64,000 nt of DNA, taken from the NCBI RefSeq assembly GCF_016026235.1, contig NZ_CP065613.1. One strand, written 5' to 3'. A model generated the notes under the pieces. The model was not told where the DNA came from, did no database searches, and was given only the letters and a program-made list of their open reading frames with translations. Source of the stretch: Escherichia coli (GTDB lineage Bacteria > Pseudomonadota > Gammaproteobacteria > Enterobacterales > Enterobacteriaceae). Position 1 is the stretch's first letter. Every line of letters starts with the position of its first letter. Of the stretch, positions 4,025 through 50,300 are shown in pieces. The translations under genes and the position numbers were made by a program.

Positions 4025-4147
4025 AATCGAGCCCAGATGCCGGATGCGGCGTGAACGCCTTATCCAGCCTACAAATTTGTGCAAATTCAATAAATTGCAG
4101 GAAATACGTAGGCCTGATAAGACGCGTCAAGCGTCGCATCAGGCATC
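4025..4147. repeat. REP/BIME palindromic units in the phr-dtpD convergent intergenic region
   Basis: gccggatgcggcgtgaacgccttatccagcctaca and gtaggcctgataagacgcgtcaagcgtcgcatcaggc; imperfect GC-rich palindromes of the REP family. Confidence 0.8.
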
Positions 4148-9019: not shown

Positions 9020-9811
9020 ATGCCTGAAGGCCCGGAGATCCGCCGTGCAGCGGATAACCTGGAGGCGGCGATCAAAGGCAAACCACTAACTGATGTCTGG
9101 TTTGCCTTCCCGCAGTTAAAAACTTATCAATCACAACTTATCGGTCAACACGTTACCCATGTGGAAACGCGTGGTAAGGCGTTGTTAACTCATTTTTCCA
9201 ACGACTTAACGCTCTACAGCCATAATCAGCTTTATGGCGTCTGGCGCGTGGTTGATACCGGCGAAGAGCCGCAGACCACGCGAGTATTGCGGGTAAAACT
9301 GCAAACGGCTGACAAAACCATTCTGCTTTATAGCGCCTCGGATATTGAGATGTTGACCCCGGAACAACTGACCACGCATCCGTTTTTACAACGCGTTGGT
9401 CCCGATGTGCTGGATCCGAATCTGACGCCGGAGGTGGTGAAAGAACGGTTATTGTCGCCGCGCTTTCGTAACCGTCAGTTTGCTGGATTACTGCTCGATC
9501 AGGCGTTTCTGGCTGGGCTTGGCAATTATTTGCGTGTGGAGATCCTCTGGCAGGTTGGGTTGACTGGAAATCATAAAGCGAAAGACCTCAATGCGGCGCA
9601 ACTGGATGCACTCGCACACGCGTTACTGGATATTCCTCGGTTTTCTTACGCTACGCGGGGGCAGGTGGATGAGAATAAGCATCATGGGGCGCTGTTTCGC
9701 TTTAAGGTTTTTCATCGTGATGGCGAACTGTGCGAACGCTGTGGCGGCATCATTGAGAAAACCACGCTGTCATCTCGCCCGTTTTACTGGTGTTCGGGCT
9801 GCCAGCACTAG
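9020..9811 (+). CDS. nei: Endonuclease VIII (Fpg/Nei family DNA glycosylase/AP lyase)
   Basis: 263-aa ORF beginning MPEGPEIRR (catalytic N-terminal Pro after Met) and ending with a zinc finger CERCGG...CSGCQH. Confidence 0.95.
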
Positions 9812-25847: not shown

Positions 25848-26035
25848 GCACTGTAGACCGGATAAGACATTATCGCCTTCTCCGGCAATTGAAGCCTGAT
25901 GCGACGCTTAACGCGTCTTATCAGGCCTACGGGAAGCACCGATGTAGGTCGGATAAGGCGCTCGCGCCGCATCCGACAAGCGATGCCAGATGCGACGCTT
26001 ACACGTCTTATCAGGCCTACGGGTGACCGACAATA
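25848..26035. repeat. REP/BIME cluster between sucB and sucC
   Basis: At least four palindromic units (gcctgatgcgacgcttaacgcgtcttatcaggcctac, gtaggtcggataaggcgctcgcgccgcatccgac, and others) within about 190 bp. Confidence 0.8.
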
Positions 26036-42911: not shown

Positions 42912-43457
<546 letters not shown>

Positions 43458-43466
43458 GAGAATTGC

Positions 43467-44258
43467 ATGAGCAGTAACTTCAGACATCAACTATTGAGTC
43501 TGTCGTTACTGGTTGGTATAGCGGCCCCCTGGGCCGCTTTTGCTCAGGCACCAATCAGTAGTGTCGGCTCAGGCTCGGTCGAAGACCGCGTCACTCAACT
43601 TGAGCGTATTTCTAATGCTCACAGCCAGCTTTTAACCCAACTCCAGCAACAACTTTCTGATAATCAATCCGATATTGATTCCCTGCGTGGTCAGATTCAG
43701 GAAAATCAGTATCAACTGAATCAGGTCGTGGAGCGGCAAAAGCAGATCCTGTTGCAGATCGACAGCCTCAGCAGCGGTGGTGCAGCGGCGCAATCAACCA
43801 GCAGCGATCAAAGCGGTGCGGCGGCATCAACGACGCCGACAGCTGATGCTGGTACTGCGAATGCTGGCGCGCCGGTGAAAAGCGGTGATGCAAACACGGA
43901 TTACAATGCAGCTATTGCGCTGGTGCAGGATAAATCCCGCCAGGATGACGCAATGGTGGCATTTCAGAATTTCATCAAAAATTACCCTGATTCAACTTAC
44001 CTGCCAAACGCCAATTATTGGCTGGGTCAGTTAAACTACAACAAGGGTAAAAAAGATGATGCGGCGTACTATTTTGCTTCGGTAGTGAAAAACTATCCGA
44101 AGTCACCAAAGGCTGCTGATGCGATGTTTAAAGTCGGCGTCATCATGCAGGACAAAGGTGACACCGCAAAAGCGAAAGCCGTATACCAGCAGGTTATCAG
44201 TAAATACCCTGGTACTGATGGCGCTAAACAGGCACAAAAACGTCTGAACGCGATGTAA
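43467..44258 (+). CDS. cpoB: Cell division coordinator CpoB (YbgF), TPR-repeat periplasmic protein
   Basis: 263-aa ORF MSSNFRHQLLSLSLLVGIAAPWAAFAQAPISS... with coiled-coil and TPR region. Confidence 0.93.
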   Translation: MSSNFRHQLLSLSLLVGIAAPWAAFAQAPISSVGSGSVEDRVTQLERISNAHSQLLTQLQQQLSDNQSDIDSLRGQIQENQYQLNQVVERQKQILLQIDSLSSGGAAAQSTSSDQSGAAASTTPTADAGTANAGAPVKSGDANTDYNAAIALVQDKSRQDDAMVAFQNFIKNYPDSTYLPNANYWLGQLNYNKGKKDDAAYYFASVVKNYPKSPKAADAMFKVGVIMQDKGDTAKAKAVYQQVISKYPGTDGAKQAQKRLNAM

Positions 44259-44261
44259 TGC

Positions 44262-44302
44262 ATAACACACGACCAGAAGTCGCATTATTTCTGGTCGTGT
44301 CG
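44262..44302 (+). terminator. Rho-independent terminator after cpoB
   Basis: Hairpin acacgaccagaa...ttctggtcgtgt immediately after the cpoB stop. Confidence 0.6.
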
Positions 44303-44422
44303 TGCGAATCATAAGCAGTTGAGTGATCTGCATCGAAATTTTTGTTGCGCTCAAGTCTGAAATCAGTAATATATGCCGCCGTTGCCACGGGATATCAAAC
44401 AAACCGAAAGCAACGAAAAAGT

Positions 44423-44498
44423 GGGTCGTTAGCTCAGTTGGTAGAGCAGTTGACTTTTAATCAATTGGTCGCAGGTTCGAATCCTGCACGACCCACCA
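44423..44498 (+). tRNA. lysT: tRNA-Lys (anticodon UUU)
   Basis: gggtcgttagctcagttggtagagcagttgacttttaatcaattggtcgcaggttcgaatcctgcacgacccacca; cloverleaf with TTT anticodon and encoded CCA. Confidence 0.95.
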
Positions 44499-44526
44499 AT
44501 CGCTAAGGTGGAAGCGGTAGTAAAAC

Positions 44527-44598
44527 GTGAAGGATAACGTTGCATCAGCAACGGCCCGAAGGGCGAGACGAAGTCGAGTCATCCTGCACGACCCACCA
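44527..44598 (+). repeat. Spacer repeat copy 1 ending in a pseudo-tRNA-Lys 3' end
   Basis: gtgaaggataacgttgcatcagcaacggcccgaagggcgagacgaagtcgagtcATCCTGCACGACCCACCA; last 18 nt identical to the 3' end of tRNA-Lys. Confidence 0.8.
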
Positions 44599-44633
44599 CT
44601 AACATAGTTAGTTGTAGTATCCAGCGTAGTATT

Positions 44634-44709
44634 GGGTGATTAGCTCAGCTGGGAGAGCACCTCCCTTACAAGGAGGGGGTCGGCGGTTCGATCCCGTCAT
44701 CACCCACCA
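44634..44709 (+). tRNA. valT: tRNA-Val (anticodon UAC)
   Basis: gggtgattagctcagctgggagagcacctcccttacaaggagggggtcggcggttcgatcccgtcatcacccacca. Confidence 0.95.
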
Positions 44710-44711
44710 CC

Positions 44712-44787
44712 GGGTCGTTAGCTCAGTTGGTAGAGCAGTTGACTTTTAATCAATTGGTCGCAGGTTCGAATCCTGCACGACCCACCA
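44712..44787 (+). tRNA. lysW: tRNA-Lys (anticodon UUU)
   Basis: Identical to the lysT sequence; starts 2 nt after valT. Confidence 0.95.
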
Positions 44788-44815
44788 GTTTTAGCATCGA
44801 AGACAGATGTTAAGC

Positions 44816-44885
44816 GTGTAGGATAACGTTGCGTCAGCAACGGCCCGTAGGGCGAGCGAAGCGAGTCATCCTGCACGACCCACCA
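44816..44885 (+). repeat. Spacer repeat copy 2 ending in a pseudo-tRNA-Lys 3' end
   Basis: Near-identical to copy 1, with a few substitutions. Confidence 0.8.
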
Positions 44886-44936
44886 CTAATTACGGTGGGT
44901 TCGGTGGAAGTAGTTTGTAGTATCCAGCGCAGTATC

Positions 44937-45012
44937 GGGTGATTAGCTCAGCTGGGAGAGCACCTCCCTTACAAGGAGGGGGTCGGCGGTTCGATCCCGT
45001 CATCACCCACCA
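44937..45012 (+). tRNA. valZ: tRNA-Val (anticodon UAC)
   Basis: Identical to the valT sequence. Confidence 0.95.
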
Positions 45013-45015
45013 CTC

Positions 45016-45091
45016 GGGTCGTTAGCTCAGTTGGTAGAGCAGTTGACTTTTAATCAATTGGTCGCAGGTTCGAATCCTGCACGACCCACCA
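45016..45091 (+). tRNA. lysY: tRNA-Lys (anticodon UUU)
   Basis: Identical to the lysT sequence; 3 nt after valZ. Confidence 0.95.
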
Positions 45092-45119
45092 ATTTTAACA
45101 TCAAACTCAGATGTTAAGC

Positions 45120-45189
45120 GTGAAGGATAACGTTGCGCCAGCAACGGCCCGAAGGGCGAGCGAAGCGAGTCATCCTGCACGACCCACCA
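45120..45189 (+). repeat. Spacer repeat copy 3 ending in a pseudo-tRNA-Lys 3' end
   Basis: Near-identical to copies 1 and 2. Confidence 0.8.
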
Positions 45190-45237
45190 ATCTTAAAGAT
45201 TGGCCCCGAGTAAAAATCTTTCAGGTAACACCCGTAT

Positions 45238-45313
45238 GGGTCGTTAGCTCAGTTGGTAGAGCAGTTGACTTTTAATCAATTGGTCGCAGGTTCGAATCCT
45301 GCACGACCCACCA
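45238..45313 (+). tRNA. lysZ: tRNA-Lys (anticodon UUU)
   Basis: Identical to the lysT sequence. Confidence 0.95.
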
Positions 45314-45346
45314 TCCTGAATGATTAAAGCAGCATAATCCCGCAAG

Positions 45347-45422
45347 GGGTCGTTAGCTCAGTTGGTAGAGCAGTTGACTTTTAATCAATTGGTCGCAGGT
45401 TCGAATCCTGCACGACCCACCA
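45347..45422 (+). tRNA. lysQ: tRNA-Lys (anticodon UUU)
   Basis: Identical to the lysT sequence; last gene of the array. Confidence 0.95.
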
Positions 45423-45455: not shown

Positions 45456-45609
45456 TATTCAGGCATCTCTCAATTTCAATTCTTGACCCTGATGACATAC
45501 TCCGCGCTTGCTGCGTAAACAACTTTACGTCGGAGGAATAAGACGCAAAGTGTGGCATTCGGCATCTCATACGTAATTCGAGTGACTTTTCCCCACCATT
45601 CGACTATCT

Positions 45610-45627
45610 TGTTTAGCATATAAAACA
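45610..45627. promoter_or_regulatory. Probable NadR operator upstream of nadA
   Basis: TGTTTA-gcatat-AAAACA, close to the TGTTTA-N6-TAAACA palindrome, about 75 nt upstream of the nadA start. Confidence 0.5.
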
Positions 45628-45699
45628 AATCACGCCGATAACAGCGAATATCACGCTAATGTCGGTTTTAACGTTAAGCCTGTAAAACGAGATGGTAAG

Positions 45700-46743
45700 A
45701 TGAGCGTGATGTTTGATCCAGACACGGCGATTTATCCTTTCCCCCCGAAGCCGACGCCGTTAAGCATTGATGAAAAAGCGTATTACCGCGAGAAGATAAA
45801 ACGTCTGCTAAAAGAACGTAATGCGGTGATGGTTGCCCACTACTATACCGATCCCGAAATTCAACAACTGGCAGAAGAAACCGGTGGCTGTATTTCTGAT
45901 TCTTTGGAAATGGCGCGCTTCGGTGCAAAGCATCCCGCCTCTACGTTGTTAGTCGCTGGGGTGAGATTTATGGGAGAAACCGCCAAAATTCTCAGTCCGG
46001 AAAAAACAATTCTGATGCCGACACTTCAGGCTGAATGTTCACTGGATCTCGGCTGCCCTGTTGAAGAATTTAACGCATTTTGCGATGCCCATCCCGATCA
46101 TACTGTCGTCGTCTACGCCAACACTTCTGCTGCGGTAAAAGCGCGGGCAGATTGGGTGGTAACTTCAAGCATTGCCGTCGAACTTATTGATCATCTGGAT
46201 AGTTTGGGTGAAAAAATCATCTGGGCACCCGACAAACATCTGGGGCGTTACGTGCAAAAACAGACGGGCGCAGACATTTTATGCTGGCAGGGTGCCTGCA
46301 TTGTGCATGATGAATTTAAGACTCAGGCGTTAACCCGCTTGCAAGAAGAATACCCGGATGCTGCCATACTGGTGCATCCAGAATCACCACAAGCTATTGT
46401 CGATATGGCGGATGCGGTCGGTTCCACCAGTCAACTGATCGCTGCTGCGAAAACATTGCCACATCAGAGGCTTATTGTGGCAACCGATCGGGGTATTTTC
46501 TACAAAATGCAGCAGGCGGTGCCAGATAAAGAGTTACTGGAAGCACCAACCGCGGGTGAGGGCGCAACCTGCCGCAGCTGCGCGCATTGTCCGTGGATGG
46601 CCATGAATGGCCTTCAGGCTATCGCAGAGGCATTAGAACAGGAAGGAAGTAATCACGAGGTTCATGTCGATGAGAGGCTGCGAGAGAGGGCGCTGGTGCC
46701 GCTCAATCGTATGCTGGATTTTGCGGCTACACTACGTGGATAA
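45700..46743 (+). CDS. nadA: Quinolinate synthase A
   Basis: 347-aa [66 protein letters not shown]... Confidence 0.96.
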
Positions 46744-46780
46744 CGAATAATAAGGCGTAACGTTACGCTTTGGGGGAAAG

Positions 46781-47500
46781 ATGGATTTTTTTAGTGTGCA
46801 GAATATCCTGGTACATATACCAATAGGGGCGGGCGGTTATGATCTCTCATGGATCGAAGCGGTAGGCACGATCGCCGGGTTGCTGTGTATTGGCCTTGCC
46901 AGTCTGGAGAAGATCAGCAACTACTTCTTTGGCCTGATCAACGTCACCTTGTTTGGCATTATTTTCTTTCAGATTCAGCTGTATGCCAGCCTGCTATTAC
47001 AGGTGTTTTTCTTTGCCGCGAATATTTACGGTTGGTATGCGTGGTCGCGACAAACCAGTCAGAACGAGGCGGAGTTGAAAATTCGCTGGTTGCCATTGCC
47101 GAAGGCGCTAAGCTGGTTGGCGGTTTGCGTTGTTTCGATTGGTCTGATGACGGTATTTATCAATCCGGTGTTTGCATTTTTGACCCGCGTGGCAGTCATC
47201 ATCATGCAAGCATTAGGATTACAGGTTGTAATGCCTGAACTGCAACCGGACGCTTTCCCGTTCTGGGATTCATGCATGATGGTGTTATCTATCGTGGCAA
47301 TGATTCTGATGACGCGTAAGTATGTGGAAAACTGGCTGTTGTGGGTGATTATTAACGTGATTAGCGTCGTTATTTTTGCACTTCAGGGCGTTTACGCCAT
47401 GTCTCTGGAGTACATCATCCTGACCTTTATTGCGCTCAACGGCAGCCGGATGTGGATCAACAGCGCACGTGAAAGAGGCTCACGCGCGCTGTCCCATTAA
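46781..47500 (+). CDS. pnuC: Nicotinamide riboside transporter PnuC
   Basis: 239-aa hydrophobic [47 protein letters not shown]...; downstream of nadA. Confidence 0.93.
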
Positions 47501-48438
47501 TGGTGATGATGTGAATGGCCAGACACCCCTTCATTCAGGTGGCAGTCTGGCCCATGACAAGGTTGATATTCCATCTGAATGGTGGCGTGCTCAATCTGAT
47601 AGTGATCCATCAGGTAGTGTTGGATCTGATCCAACAAGGCATCGTGATCGTGTGGCGGGATCACCTGCACATGCAACGTCATCACCGGCTTCTCGCCTAC
47701 CATCCATACATGCACATGGTGCACATTGCGGACTTCCGGGATTTCCCGGCACATACGACGCTTCAGTTCAGCGATATCCAGCGATACCGGTGCACCCTCA
47801 AGTAATTCATTCACGCTATCTTTCAACAGTCGCCACGCGCTACGCAGAACCAGAAGCGACACCAGTATCGAGAGAATGGGGTCAGCAGGTGTCCAGCCGG
47901 TCCAGATAATAATCAACGCGGCAATAATAGCCCCAACCGAACCCAGCAGGTCCCCGAGCACATGCAGTGCCGCTGCGCGCACGTTGAGGTTTTTCTCTTC
48001 GCTGCCGTGATGAAGTAACCAGAAAGAAAGTATATTTGCCAGCAACCCAGCCACGGCAATTGCCATCATCATGCCGCCCTCGACCGGACGCGGCGTGCGG
48101 AAGCGTTCAATCGCCTCCCAGACAATCAAAATGGTAATTACCACGAGGGCGATGGCATTCACAAACGCCGCGAGCGTGGTCAGTCTTAGCCAACCGAAAG
48201 TGTGGCGAATGGTGGGAGGACGACGTGAAAATTGCACGGCGAGTAGGGCGAAAAGCAGGGCGGCAGTATCGGTCAACATATGACCCGCATCGGCCAGCAA
48301 AGCCAGAGAACCAGAAAGAAAACCACCAATGACTTCTACCAGCATAAACCCGGCAGTCACGCCGAAAGCATACAACAAGCGACGAGCATTATTATCTTCT
48401 GGCAGGTGTGAGGACGTGTGTGAGTGTGAGTGCGCCAT
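47497..48438 (-). CDS. zitB: Zinc efflux transporter ZitB (cation diffusion facilitator family)
   Basis: 313-aa [60 protein letters not shown]... with His-rich termini; 3' end overlaps the pnuC 3' end by 4 nt. Confidence 0.93.
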
Positions 48439-48551
48439 GACGAGTCATCCCTTAATTATTCTCACTTAACTTTATGACATCTTACTGCTTTTAGAAGGGA
48501 AAAATTAAAAGGGAGAGACTCCGCTCTCCCATTATTGGCTATTTTGCAGGG

Positions 48552-48932
48552 TTACTGCGTAGTACCGTCGGTTTTGGTATCGACATCATTATTGATGCCA
48601 TCACCGGTTTGTACCTTTTTATTGATATCCGGGCAGCGACCATCTTTGCACATGGTGTTCTTGTGCTCTTCATATTTGGTCATGCCATCATTGTTCATTG
48701 AAGAACCATCCGGATGCAGCATAGTGCCGCCAGAACCGGTATTTACCCCGTTATTGTCGACGTTATTTGGCGCGACATTTTCACGGGCGTCAGGGGCTAC
48801 CTGGCCCGCATCAGCTGCGGCGTTTGCCTGGCCGTTATTGGTTTGCGCTCCGCTATCGGCAGCCAGTGCGGCACCGCTGGCAAGGCTTAGAGTGGCAGTC
48901 AGAAATAGTGTGGCCAGTTTTGTCATTTTCAT
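48552..48932 (-). CDS. ybgS: Secreted low-complexity protein YbgS (function unknown)
   Basis: 126-aa [27 protein letters not shown] (signal peptide), Asn/Gly/Asp-rich mature region. Confidence 0.85.
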
Positions 48933-49159
48933 AGGATGCTCCTGTTATGGTCGTTATGTCGGATAACCTCTTCCAACAGTGCATTTGCAGGTGAATATAA
49001 GGCATTGGTTTAAGATTTCAGCCAGGCAAAGAAATCCAGCAGAGAATCTTGAAATAATTAACAAACAAAGGAGTTACAGTTAGAAATTGTAGGAGAGATC
49101 TCGTTTTTCGCGACAATCTGGCGTTTTTCTTGCTAATTCCAGGATTAATCCGTTCATAG

Positions 49160-49177
49160 TGTAAAACCCCGTTTACA
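49160..49177. promoter_or_regulatory. TyrR box in the aroG promoter
   Basis: TGTAAA-accccg-TTTACA, perfect match to TGTAAA-N6-TTTACA, about 70 nt upstream of the aroG start. Confidence 0.7.
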
Positions 49178-49247
49178 CATTCTGACGGAAGATATAGATT
49201 GGAGGTATTGCATTCACTAAGATAAGTATGGCAACACTGGAACAGAC

Positions 49248-50300
49248 ATGAATTATCAGAACGACGATTTACGCATCAAAGAAATCAAAGAGTTACTTCC
49301 TCCTGTCGCATTGCTGGAAAAATTCCCCGCTACTGAAAATGCCGCGAATACGGTTGCCCATGCCCGAAAAGCGATCCATAAGATCCTGAAAGGTAATGAT
49401 GATCGCCTGTTGGTGGTGATTGGCCCGTGCTCAATTCATGATCCTGTCGCGGCTAAAGAGTATGCCACTCGCTTGCTGGCGCTGCGTGAAGAGCTGAAAG
49501 ATGAGCTGGAAATCGTAATGCGCGTCTATTTTGAAAAGCCGCGCACCACGGTGGGCTGGAAAGGGCTGATTAACGATCCGCATATGGACAATAGCTTCCA
49601 GATCAACGACGGTTTGCGTATTGCCCGTAAATTGCTGCTCGATATTAACGACAGCGGTCTGCCAGCTGCGGGTGAATTCCTCGATATGATCACTCCTCAG
49701 TATCTCGCTGACCTGATGAGCTGGGGCGCAATTGGTGCACGTACCACGGAATCGCAGGTGCACCGCGAACTGGCGTCTGGTCTTTCTTGTCCGGTAGGTT
49801 TTAAAAATGGCACAGACGGTACGATTAAAGTGGCTATCGATGCCATTAATGCCGCCGGTGCGCCGCACTGCTTCCTGTCCGTAACTAAATGGGGGCATTC
49901 GGCGATTGTGAATACCAGCGGTAACGGCGATTGCCATATCATTCTGCGCGGCGGTAAAGAGCCTAACTACAGCGCGAAGCACGTTGCTGAAGTGAAAGAA
50001 GGGCTGAACAAAGCAGGTCTGCCAGCTCAGGTGATGATCGATTTCAGCCATGCTAATTCGTCCAAACAATTCAAAAAGCAGATGGATGTTTGTGCTGACG
50101 TTTGCCAGCAGATTGCCGGTGGCGAAAAGGGCATTATCGGTGTGATGGTGGAAAGTCATCTGGTTGAAGGCCATCAGAGCCTGGAGAGCGGGGAGCCGCT
50201 GGCCTATGGTAAGAGCATCACCGATGCCTGCATTGGCTGGGAAGATACCGATGCTCTGTTACGTCAACTGGCGAACGCAGTGAAAGCGCGTCGCGGGTAA
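49248..50300 (+). CDS. aroG: Phe-sensitive 3-deoxy-7-phosphoheptulonate (DAHP) synthase
   Basis: 350-aa ORF MNYQNDDLRIKEIKELLPPVALLEKFPATENAANTVAHARKAIHKILKGNDDRLLVVIGPCSIHDP... Confidence 0.96.
   Translation: MNYQNDDLRIKEIKELLPPVALLEKFPATENAANTVAHARKAIHKILKGNDDRLLVVIGPCSIHDPVAAKEYATRLLALREELKDELEIVMRVYFEKPRTTVGWKGLINDPHMDNSFQINDGLRIARKLLLDINDSGLPAAGEFLDMITPQYLADLMSWGAIGARTTESQVHRELASGLSCPVGFKNGTDGTIKVAIDAINAAGAPHCFLSVTKWGHSAIVNTSGNGDCHIILRGGKEPNYSAKHVAEVKEGLNKAGLPAQVMIDFSHANSSKQFKKQMDVCADVCQQIAGGEKGIIGVMVESHLVEGHQSLESGEPLAYGKSITDACIGWEDTDALLRQLANAVKARRG

Follow-up and report, generated by a model that had tools for sequence, protein, structure and literature searches.

Convergent pnuC and zitB genes of Escherichia coli share a stop tetramer and carry a conserved stem-loop past each stop codon, within the partner's coding sequence

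The convergent E. coli genes pnuC and zitB overlap at their stop codons, and past each stop, inside the coding sequence of the partner, there is a conserved stem-loop that lacks a U-tract. The pair forms an ordinary, compact and evolutionarily stable convergent junction and is not a one-strain accident. With moderate confidence, we favor an explanation in which this compact junction is served by Rho-dependent or diffuse termination within the partner gene, and the 3' ends of the two mRNAs are trimmed back to the protective stems. The analysis used a 64,000-nucleotide stretch of E. coli DNA (NCBI RefSeq assembly GCF_016026235.1, contig NZ_CP065613.1), referred to here as the window, and positions are numbered from its first letter. 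The junction is made up of the following features:

46781-47500, plus strand: pnuC coding sequence (nicotinamide riboside transporter, 239 aa), with the stop codon TAA at 47498-47500; from the open reading frame (ORF) list, Pfam and RefSeq.
47497-48438, minus strand: zitB coding sequence (CDF zinc exporter, 313 aa); from the ORF list, Pfam and RefSeq.
47497-47500, unstranded: stop tetramer TTAA common to both coding sequences (4-nt overlap), read in the sequence.

The zitB stop codon, TAA read from 47499 to 47497, appears as TTA at 47497-47499 on the plus strand (sequence and ORF list). An earlier reading of the letters and ORFs alone (the sequence-only reading) had reported that the two stop codons overlap, and this was confirmed: they do so in the TTAA tetramer, with no intergenic spacer. 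Because the tetramer is common to both genes, there is no intergenic DNA that could hold a terminator. The identity of the genes is clear. PnuC matches Pfam NMN_transporter (PF04973) over residues 23-226 (1.6e-49), and ZitB matches Cation_efflux (PF01545) and ZT_dimer (PF16916) (7.2e-51) and is homologous to the ZnT8 and FieF structures. In the K-12 RefSeq annotation the geometry of pnuC/zitB, and of a second tail-to-tail pair, modC/ybhA, is identical to that in the window, and pnuC and zitB are annotated in the same way in other RefSeq genomes. An annotation artefact was ruled out; the stops are unambiguous, the alignment of each protein to its family extends up to the tail, and an overlap found in more than one species is not a product of annotation.

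Of 5426 complete E. coli genomes, 5425 contain the pnuC/zitB region. For comparison beyond the species, 80 Enterobacterales loci were fetched from 386 relatives found, which together with the window gave 81 sequences. The tail-to-tail junction was kept in all 80 related loci, with a spacing of -7 to +3; counting the window, the spacing was -4 in 69 of the 81 sequences, 0 in nine, -7 in two and +3 in one. The junction position in the relatives reads TTAA, TTAG, CTAA or CTAG, or else is a 0, -7 or +3 variant.

Four nucleotides is the geometric minimum for a convergent overlap. The four-base strings CTAA, TTAA, CTAG and TTAG make overlap-length distributions rise abruptly at length 4, and this class is the modal convergent overlap; the count for E. 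coli came to 58 convergent overlaps, and mutation of a stop codon is their accepted origin (PMC2174442). The pnuC/zitB pair belongs to this class, being a pair of real tail-to-tail genes that share one of the four tetramers in multiple species. It resembles the class of Lillo & Krakauer 2007 (PMC2174442) in its tail-to-tail arrangement, in an overlap that consists of the two stop codons only and in the occurrence of all four tetramers among the relatives; there is no essential difference, except that the junction is unusually stable across the related loci. The overlap is already known: RefSeq annotates it, its class is well described and a published excludon catalogue lists it. Another case in the window, overlooked by the sequence-only reading, is nei/abrB, which shares CTAG at 9808-9811.

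Canonical terminators, defined as a stem with at least 5 T in 8, were sought over positions 45500-49300, and none was found near the pnuC/zitB junction. The closest hits of the scan were the terminator of ybgS (48530-48511) and, between nadA and pnuC, a weak palindrome (46755-46768). An Rfam scan of the whole window gave no RNA family at the pnuC/zitB or modC/ybhA junction. The claim that the genes meet with no terminator therefore needs to be divided: no hairpin followed by a U-tract is present, but a conserved U-less stem-loop does lie past each stop, within the coding sequence of the partner. The two stem-loops are as follows:

47459-47493, minus strand: stem-loop A, candidate 3'-end hairpin of the zitB mRNA, inside the terminal 13 codons of pnuC, a few nucleotides past the zitB stop.
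47517-47552, plus strand: stem-loop B, candidate 3'-end hairpin of the nadA-pnuC mRNA, inside the terminal ~18 codons of zitB, 16 nt past the pnuC stop.

Both were found by folding and by an inverted-repeat search. Stem A has 15 bp on the minus strand (arms 47479-47493 and 47459-47473), no U-tract, and a fold z of -4.88 against dinucleotide shuffles of the window sequence. Stem B consists of an outer stem, GGCCAGAC paired with GTCTGGCC (47517-47524 with 47545-47552), and additional inner pairs; it too is free of a U-tract, and its fold z is -3.95. A larger symmetric DNA element centered on TTAA was ruled out, as stem A lies 4 nt and stem B 17 nt from the tetramer; the stems are also not halves of a symmetric element, as their sequences are unrelated to each other. 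A single stem-loop no more than 85 nt from each stop was present in 81/81 sequences, with stems of 15-19 bp that are GC-rich and median dG values of -20.6 and -25.6 kcal/mol, compared with -11.5 and -13.7 for internal antisense windows of the same two genes. In size and energy, as in being GC-rich, the stem-loops are similar to canonical intrinsic terminators; they differ in being sited within coding sequence and in having no U-rich tract directly 3' of the stem. The 8-nt tails contain a median of 2 U; 5 or more U occur in 0/81 sequences for zitB and in 1/81 for pnuC.

Both stems could in principle be by-products of the amino acids encoded and of GC-rich codons, with no function in RNA, with diffuse transcript ends and with an overlap produced by neutral compaction through stop-codon drift. 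We regard this as very unlikely, although stem A speaks in its favor. Across 79 distinct sequences, 85% of the cells in stem A are paired, but the stem is nearly invariant and its covariation is marginal, with a score of 0.122 compared with 0.110 in shuffles and 6/500 shuffles reaching the observed value. RNAalifold returned only a 7-bp core in region A, with hardly any covariation. Stem A also encodes a conserved peptide, SARERGSRA, to which it could owe its conservation largely, and the accepted origin of convergent overlaps in stop-codon mutation (PMC2174442) would fit neutral drift as well. Relative to synonymous recodings, stem A nonetheless has greater stability on the minus strand than on the plus strand (median z -1.78 and -0.85, respectively), and it is the more stable on the minus strand in 60/81 sequences.

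Stem B is harder to reconcile with a lack of RNA function. Its paired cells amount to 87%, compared with 76.6% in shuffles, a level that 0/500 shuffles reached, and controls in which the pairing was slid along the alignment gave far lower values (22-49%). Its covariation score was 0.32 against 0.148 in shuffles, again reached by 0/500. The covarying pair, alignment columns 32-77, corresponds to two Gly third-codon positions, between which G-C, C-G and A-U are exchanged; such covariation at synonymous sites suggests that stem B is under selection beyond protein coding. The pairing was specified by hand for this test, after RNAalifold had given no consensus structure for the plus-strand alignment of region B, made with MAFFT, in which indels of His codons upset the columns. 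The shuffle statistics for both stems overstate independence because the 81 sequences are kin. Stem B is more stable on the plus strand in 77/81 sequences, a preference that may partly stem from the G+U-rich composition opposite the His codons. For each stem, wobble pairs and minimum free energy favor the strand on which the stem is downstream of a stop codon.

The junction median dG was reached by 8% of the internal antisense pnuC windows, as a by-product of coding would allow, but by no internal antisense zitB window. Compared with their synonymous recodings, both terminal windows carry significantly more structure, and this excess is larger than in the internal windows (Mann-Whitney p 0.003 and 0.0002). 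The codons involved are terminal in both proteins: in PnuC the Pfam domain stops short of the tail, and in ZitB the variable end, rich in His, has the conserved GPDC codons as its pairing partner.

A second possibility is that the stems themselves terminate transcription, either as intrinsic terminators of a weak, non-canonical type or as the positioning hairpins of collision-driven bidirectional termination, in which case neither Rho nor trimming would be needed. Collision-driven bidirectional termination at convergent E. coli genes was reportedly described by Ju et al. in 2019. It was also described by Wang et al. in 2022, and the published elements occupy the DNA separating the two genes (bioRxiv 10.1101/2022.10.23.513370). 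The pnuC/zitB pair resembles the systems of both groups (Ju et al. 2019; Wang et al.) in being convergent, in having signals unlike intrinsic terminators and in having stem-loops near the gene boundary; it differs in lacking a spacer and in having its stems, two separate ones, within the coding sequences, whereas the published elements are intergenic. No terminator element between convergent genes is therefore available at pnuC/zitB, where intergenic DNA is absent and both stems are coding. In favor of termination by the stems are their length and GC content and the finding that 23 of 116 E. coli genes in convergent overlaps have a predicted rho-independent terminator within the coding sequence of the partner (PMC2174442). 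Against it are the near-complete lack of U-tracts on both sides and the absence of a single common element; the collision route would also require frequent convergent transcription, which would be unlikely if the genes are weakly expressed.

The modC/ybhA pair bears on the same question:

60176-61234, plus strand: modC coding sequence, with the stop codon TGA at 61232-61234.
61235-62053, minus strand: ybhA coding sequence, with the stop codon TAA read from 61237 to 61235 (TTA on the plus strand) and zero spacer to modC.
61227-61247, unstranded: near-palindrome CCGCCTGATTAAATCAGGTGG across the modC and ybhA stops, forming a 9-bp hairpin on the plus strand (sequence and fold).
61134, minus strand: published primary 3' end of the ybhA mRNA (K-12 797512/797513; PMC10687069 supplement), placed by exact sequence match.

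The zero-spacer, tail-to-tail arrangement ascribed to this pair by the sequence-only reading is correct, as the coding sequences meet at 61234/61235. Its single near-palindromic hairpin across both stops speaks for termination by the stem-loops. The ybhA 3' end, however, maps ~101 nt beyond the gene's own stop, within modC (PMC10687069), and since this is 101 nt beyond the straddling hairpin, the hairpin does not stop ybhA transcription. The pair thus does not behave as a bidirectional terminator, despite having one near-palindrome that straddles the stops. We consider termination by the stems themselves to be unlikely.

Termination by Rho, which we prefer, agrees with what has been described elsewhere. 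In Rho-dependent E. coli transcripts, 3' ends occur right after stable stem-loops without a U-tract, even within downstream coding regions, and there is a mild enrichment of C over G downstream of these ends (PMC6061677). Past both stems, the read-through RNAs have a similar composition:

47553-47850, plus strand: antisense-zitB RNA from pnuC read-through, with C/G of 1.6-2.0 in 78-nt windows starting 78-234 nt past stem B.
47200-47458, minus strand: antisense-pnuC RNA from zitB read-through, with C/G of 1.5-3.0 in 78-nt windows starting 52-130 nt past stem A.

These C-over-G stretches, which start 50-100 nt past the two stems, are rut-like, and they count as weak evidence for Rho because the antisense strands of pnuC and zitB are generally C-rich. 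The junction therefore shares with the stem-loops of Dar & Sorek 2018 (PMC6061677) a stable U-less stem just past the gene, a location in the coding sequence of the neighbor and, weakly, an excess of C over G downstream. It differs in that the arrangement is reciprocal, each gene hosting the stem of the other, and in being known here from sequence, whereas the published ends are those of transcripts. No 3' end of pnuC or zitB was found in the Adams 2021, SMRT-Cappable-seq or TRS 2023 tables, among the rows listed, and Adams 2021 gives no Rho-termination region for either gene. Placement of the mRNA 3' ends at stems A and B is thus inferred, and the proposed dependence on Rho derives from base composition.

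Under the preferred explanation, RNA polymerase that passes either stop would run antisense into the partner gene. Because the ribosome has departed at the stop, this antisense RNA, untranslated and rich in C, would be a substrate for Rho, and transcription would end diffusely, within roughly 100-300 nt. Exonucleases working 3' to 5' would next degrade the RNA as far as the stem-loop, leaving the latter as the stable 3' end. The modC/ybhA pair offers an analogy, as the mapped ybhA end lies 101 nt within modC, comparable with the ends proposed here within the partner. If the ends do lie at stems A and B, the mature pnuC and zitB mRNAs would be perfectly complementary to each other over ~95 nt at their 3' ends (47459-47552), and by definition such an overlap would make them a convergent excludon.

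The sequence-only reading had also argued that each transcript reads antisense into the other gene. This follows from the overlapping stops, the missing spacer and the missing hairpin-plus-U-tract terminator, and it has already been published: ExcludonFinder called 165 convergent excludons that recur in at least half (50%) of the 58 RNA-seq samples of MG1655, and pnuC-zitB, modC-ybhA and nei-abrB are all on that list (NAR 2025, PMC12288877). The pair is like the other convergent excludons in the overlapping 3' transcription of neighbors. It differs in that its overlap is forced by the geometry of the coding sequences and not by long 3' UTRs, and in that it was listed from transcript overlap and not from exclusive expression or RNase III processing (PMC12288877). 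Because the coding sequences overlap by 4 nt, the call is near automatic when both genes are transcribed.

A functional excludon, the possibility raised in the sequence-only reading as mutual antisense interference, would go further, in that transcription of one gene would lower expression of the other by polymerase collision or by RNase III cleavage of the duplex; nicotinamide riboside uptake would then possibly be coupled inversely to zinc efflux. To our knowledge, no functional link exists between NAD salvage and zinc efflux. The listing of both the pnuC-zitB and modC-ybhA pairs in at least half of the samples (PMC12288877) and the strict conservation of the junction in 80/80 related loci would be expected of such a switch, and a complementary overlap of ~95 nt would, we reason, be long enough for RNase III. 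The listing, however, follows automatically from co-transcription of overlapping coding sequences, and conservation is accounted for just as well if no pressure exists for a spacer to be inserted. Capture of dsRNA with p19 failed to validate convergent excludons (PMC12288877), and our literature search found no locus-specific regulation experiment on pnuC/zitB. In addition, both genes are missing from the 3'-end tables searched, which hints at low expression, and at low expression collisions and duplexes would be rare. A functional excludon at this locus is improbable. More improbable still is the idea that the reciprocal stems, kept with compensatory changes across the Enterobacteriaceae, might constitute a selected antisense module of ~95 nt through which nadA-pnuC, under NadR control, and zitB antagonize each other. 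Were it true, RNA structure would have a larger part than protein function in shaping the C-terminal tails of the two proteins.

Under the preferred explanation, the overlap results mainly from compaction and is no dedicated regulatory switch, and any cross-talk between the genes is probably weak. Cross-regulation, if real, would link NAD salvage to zinc homeostasis, and nothing here points there. Beyond bookkeeping the importance of the junction is small; its added value is as a worked example, in which stems lie in the C-terminal codons of the partner and one of them covaries. The absence of an intergenic terminator is not the absence of a 3'-end signal. A convergent junction with zero spacer can still give defined mRNA 3' ends, and the protein tails encoded beside such junctions can be under constraint at the level of RNA.

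The window is a segment of the E. coli chromosome carrying tolB-pal, the lysT tRNA cluster, nadA-pnuC, zitB-ybgS, aroG, gal, mod and ybhA. Positions 46700-48500 were matched in 5425 of 5426 complete E. coli genomes, with annotation there as nadA, pnuC and zitB, and Pfam assigned NMN_transporter to PnuC and Cation_efflux and ZT_dimer to ZitB. The sequence-only reading had described a stop-codon overlap at pnuC/zitB and a zero spacer at modC/ybhA; every coordinate proved right by ORFs, sequence and K-12 RefSeq annotation.

Coding-sequence ends at the two convergent junctions
46781-47500, + strand, pnuC ORF, stop TAA at 47498-47500
47497-48438, - strand, zitB ORF, stop appearing as TTA on the + strand at 47497-47499
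61234, + strand, end of modC, stop TGA
61235, - strand, end of ybhA, stop appearing as TTA on the + strand

Because of these stop positions, the pnuC and zitB coding sequences share TTAA, and the modC/ybhA spacer is zero because the two ends abut. The geometry is the same in K-12 MG1655 (RefSeq: pnuC 783166-783885, zitB 783882-784823, modC end 797612, ybhA start 797613).

Four nucleotides is the minimum possible convergent overlap, and such an overlap is not unusual: E. coli has 58 convergent overlaps by a published count (PMC2174442), and the K-12 stretch matching the window contains seven convergent pairs with CDS spacers of 149, -4 (nei/abrB), 103, -4, 157, 0 and 40 nt. The nei/abrB pair, absent from the sequence-only reading, is a third case, a convergent 4-nt stop overlap in which nei (+, 9020-9811) and abrB (-, low end 9808) both stop at TAG and have CTAG in common at 9808-9811, with K-12 annotated alike. 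SdhX, an sRNA derived from the 3' UTR at the sucD end, finishes 2 nt from the stop of convergent mngR (K-12 765050-765153; L082:29051-29154), an essentially spacer-less junction in K-12 of sRNA terminator and CDS; the window has no identical copy of this segment.

Antisense read-through at pnuC/zitB, raised from the sequence alone, is unavoidable and already catalogued. The pnuC-zitB, modC-ybhA and nei-abrB pairs are all among 165 E. coli MG1655 convergent excludons (neighboring genes with overlapping antisense transcription), called in at least 50% of 58 RNA-seq samples; in 146 of the 165, predicted terminators lie within the neighbor's transcription unit, and p19 dsRNA capture could not validate convergent excludons (PMC12288877). 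Lillo and Krakauer had already asked where terminators lie in convergently overlapping genes; of 116 such E. coli genes, 23 had a rho-independent terminator predicted within the CDS of the partner (PMC2174442).

The claim that the junction has no terminator held in part: a consensus terminator scan found no hairpin-plus-U-tract site at pnuC/zitB, but the claim misses conserved 3' stem-loops inside the coding sequences. When 200 nt around the junction were folded, structure far exceeded that of dinucleotide shuffles (z -3.95 on +, -4.88 on -), mainly because of two inverted repeats.

Stem-loops flanking the shared stop
47459-47493, - strand, stem-loop A (fold and inverted repeat), inside the last 13 pnuC codons
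47517-47552, + strand, stem-loop B (GGCCAGAC/GTCTGGCC plus inner pairs), inside the last ~18 zitB codons

Stem-loop A forms an unbroken 15-bp helix on the - strand, beginning a few nucleotides past the zitB stop; at the position of a G·U pair in this helix, the + strand has an A·C mismatch. On the + strand, stem-loop B begins 16 nt past the pnuC stop. The U-tract that defines an intrinsic terminator is missing after both stems.

To follow the junction in relatives, a PnuC query was used with one genome per species, and 80 loci were fetched of 386 relatives found, from Escherichia, Citrobacter, Salmonella, Klebsiella, Raoultella, Enterobacter, Kosakonia, Kluyvera, Buttiauxella, Pluralibacter, Trabulsiella and others, including one Pantoea and one Erwinia MAG. 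zitB lay tail-to-tail with pnuC in all 80, and no lineage among them had acquired a real spacer; spacing, window included, was -4 in 69 sequences, 0 in nine, -7 in two and +3 in one, and all four stop tetramers occurred among the relatives. In 81/81 sequences a single stem-loop lay no more than 85 nt past each stop, with median dG of -20.6 (zitB side) and -25.6 kcal/mol (pnuC side) compared with -11.5 and -13.7 for random internal antisense windows. Five or more U in the 8 nt after the stem were found in 0/81 (zitB side) and 1/81 (pnuC side), so that, in line with the scan, the stems do not qualify as intrinsic terminators. Stem A was more stable on the - strand in 60/81 and stem B on the + strand in 77/81, in each case the strand on which the stem is downstream of a stop codon. 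Stem B had 557 paired cells on + and 509 on -, a preference to which G+U-rich sequence opposite His codons may contribute.

Across 80 distinct sequences, stem B showed standard pairs in 87.0% of cells versus 76.6% with 3' partners shuffled, and a covariation score of 0.320 versus 0.148 (0/500 shuffles reaching either value, counts that are not probabilities because the sequences are related); sliding the partner by 1-3 columns lowered pairing to 22-49%. Its most variable pair links two Gly codons at their third positions (G-C 30, C-G 17, U-G 9, G-U 8, A-U 4, unpaired 12), and Citrobacter alone has G-C, C-G and A-U there, so this is not a single inherited event. Stem A was paired in 85.3% of cells and hardly variable, with marginal covariation (0.122 versus 0.110; 6/500 shuffles); it encodes the conserved peptide SARERGSRA, outside the Pfam PnuC domain, which ends at residue 226 of 239. 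With the protein fixed and synonymous codons redrawn from each species' own usage, median z was -1.78 (-) versus -0.85 (+) for stem A, and -1.59 (+) and -1.65 (-) for stem B. In ten species, mean z was -1.37 and -1.24 in terminal windows versus -0.32 and +0.09 in internal windows of both genes (Mann-Whitney p 0.003 and 0.0002). The PnuC C-terminal tail (~residues 227-238) past the domain is encoded by stem-loop A, and in stem-loop B conserved GPDC codons of ZitB pair with codons of its variable His-rich tail. Structure in the opposite-strand RNA thus appears to constrain both protein tails.

Rho-dependent transcripts of E. coli have been described as ending, at steady state, in stable U-tract-less stem-loops just past the gene, sometimes within the next coding region, with mild C-over-G enrichment beyond the stem; these stems shield against PNPase and RNase II (PMC6061677). 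The pnuC/zitB junction is alike in its coding-embedded, U-less stems past each stop and in its composition, with C exceeding G (C/G 1.5-3.0) in windows that begin 50-100 nt past stems A and B. Given this match, Rho termination with exonuclease trimming is the best reading. Polymerase would pass each stop and enter the partner gene, Rho would end transcription on the untranslated antisense RNA, and exonucleases would trim zitB mRNA back to stem A and nadA-pnuC mRNA to stem B, leaving mature RNAs with ~95 nt of complementary 3' sequence in common (47459-47552). Collision-driven bidirectional termination is possible and fits less well because the stems are two and separate and both genes may be weakly expressed. 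No mapped pnuC or zitB 3' end was present among the rows listed of the Adams 2021, TRS 2023 and SMRT-Cappable-seq tables, which hints at low expression.

Between ybgS and zitB, a terminator-like hairpin with a T-tract (- strand, 48501-48530; GGGAGAGCGGAGTCTCTCCC and TTTTAATTTT) is the site of the ybgS Term-seq primary 3' end, which the Adams 2021 supplement places 67-68 nt upstream of zitB (K-12 784890/784891). Most zitB transcripts therefore probably carry that gene alone. The 37-nt nadA-pnuC spacer holds a palindrome, GCGTAACGTTACGC (46755-46768), then CTTATTATTC on the - strand, a weak match that is the first terminator-like site for an antisense transcript crossing the whole of pnuC.

At the analogous modC/ybhA junction, a 21-nt near-palindrome, CCGCCTGATTAAATCAGGTGG (61227-61247), spans both stops and forms a 9-bp hairpin on the + strand. 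Published mapping puts the primary 3' end of ybhA inside modC, ~101 nt beyond the ybhA stop codon (K-12 797512/797513; PMC10687069); in the window this is 61134, just before a UUUU run. The near-palindrome therefore evidently fails to halt transcription of ybhA. Next to ybhA on its 5' side, prophage-like genes occupy the K-12 pgl position (62289-63824): a 375-aa ORF (-, 62289-63416) annotated as a tyrosine recombinase/integrase in a near-identical genome, a 74-aa ORF (63301-63525) in a region annotated as excisionase in other genomes, and a full-length Rfam match to the RalA antitoxin sRNA (63634-63812, 216 bits). The other Rfam elements looked ordinary: the lysT-valT cluster with its seven tRNAs and three RtT repeats, the CpoB/ybgF thermometer, ES036 and two naRNA4 (REP-derived) copies.

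Known RNA elements in the window (Rfam)
43358-45419, 4073-4115, 21503-21573 and 25947-26017, all together

The pnuC/zitB overlap is thus already known and ordinary. Of the earlier interpretation, antisense read-through stands, the absence of a terminator gives way to the coding-embedded 3' stem-loops it overlooked, and regulatory interference between the two genes is a mere possibility. The covarying coding-embedded stem-loop and the strictly kept zero-spacer junction are tidy details, not a new kind of system.
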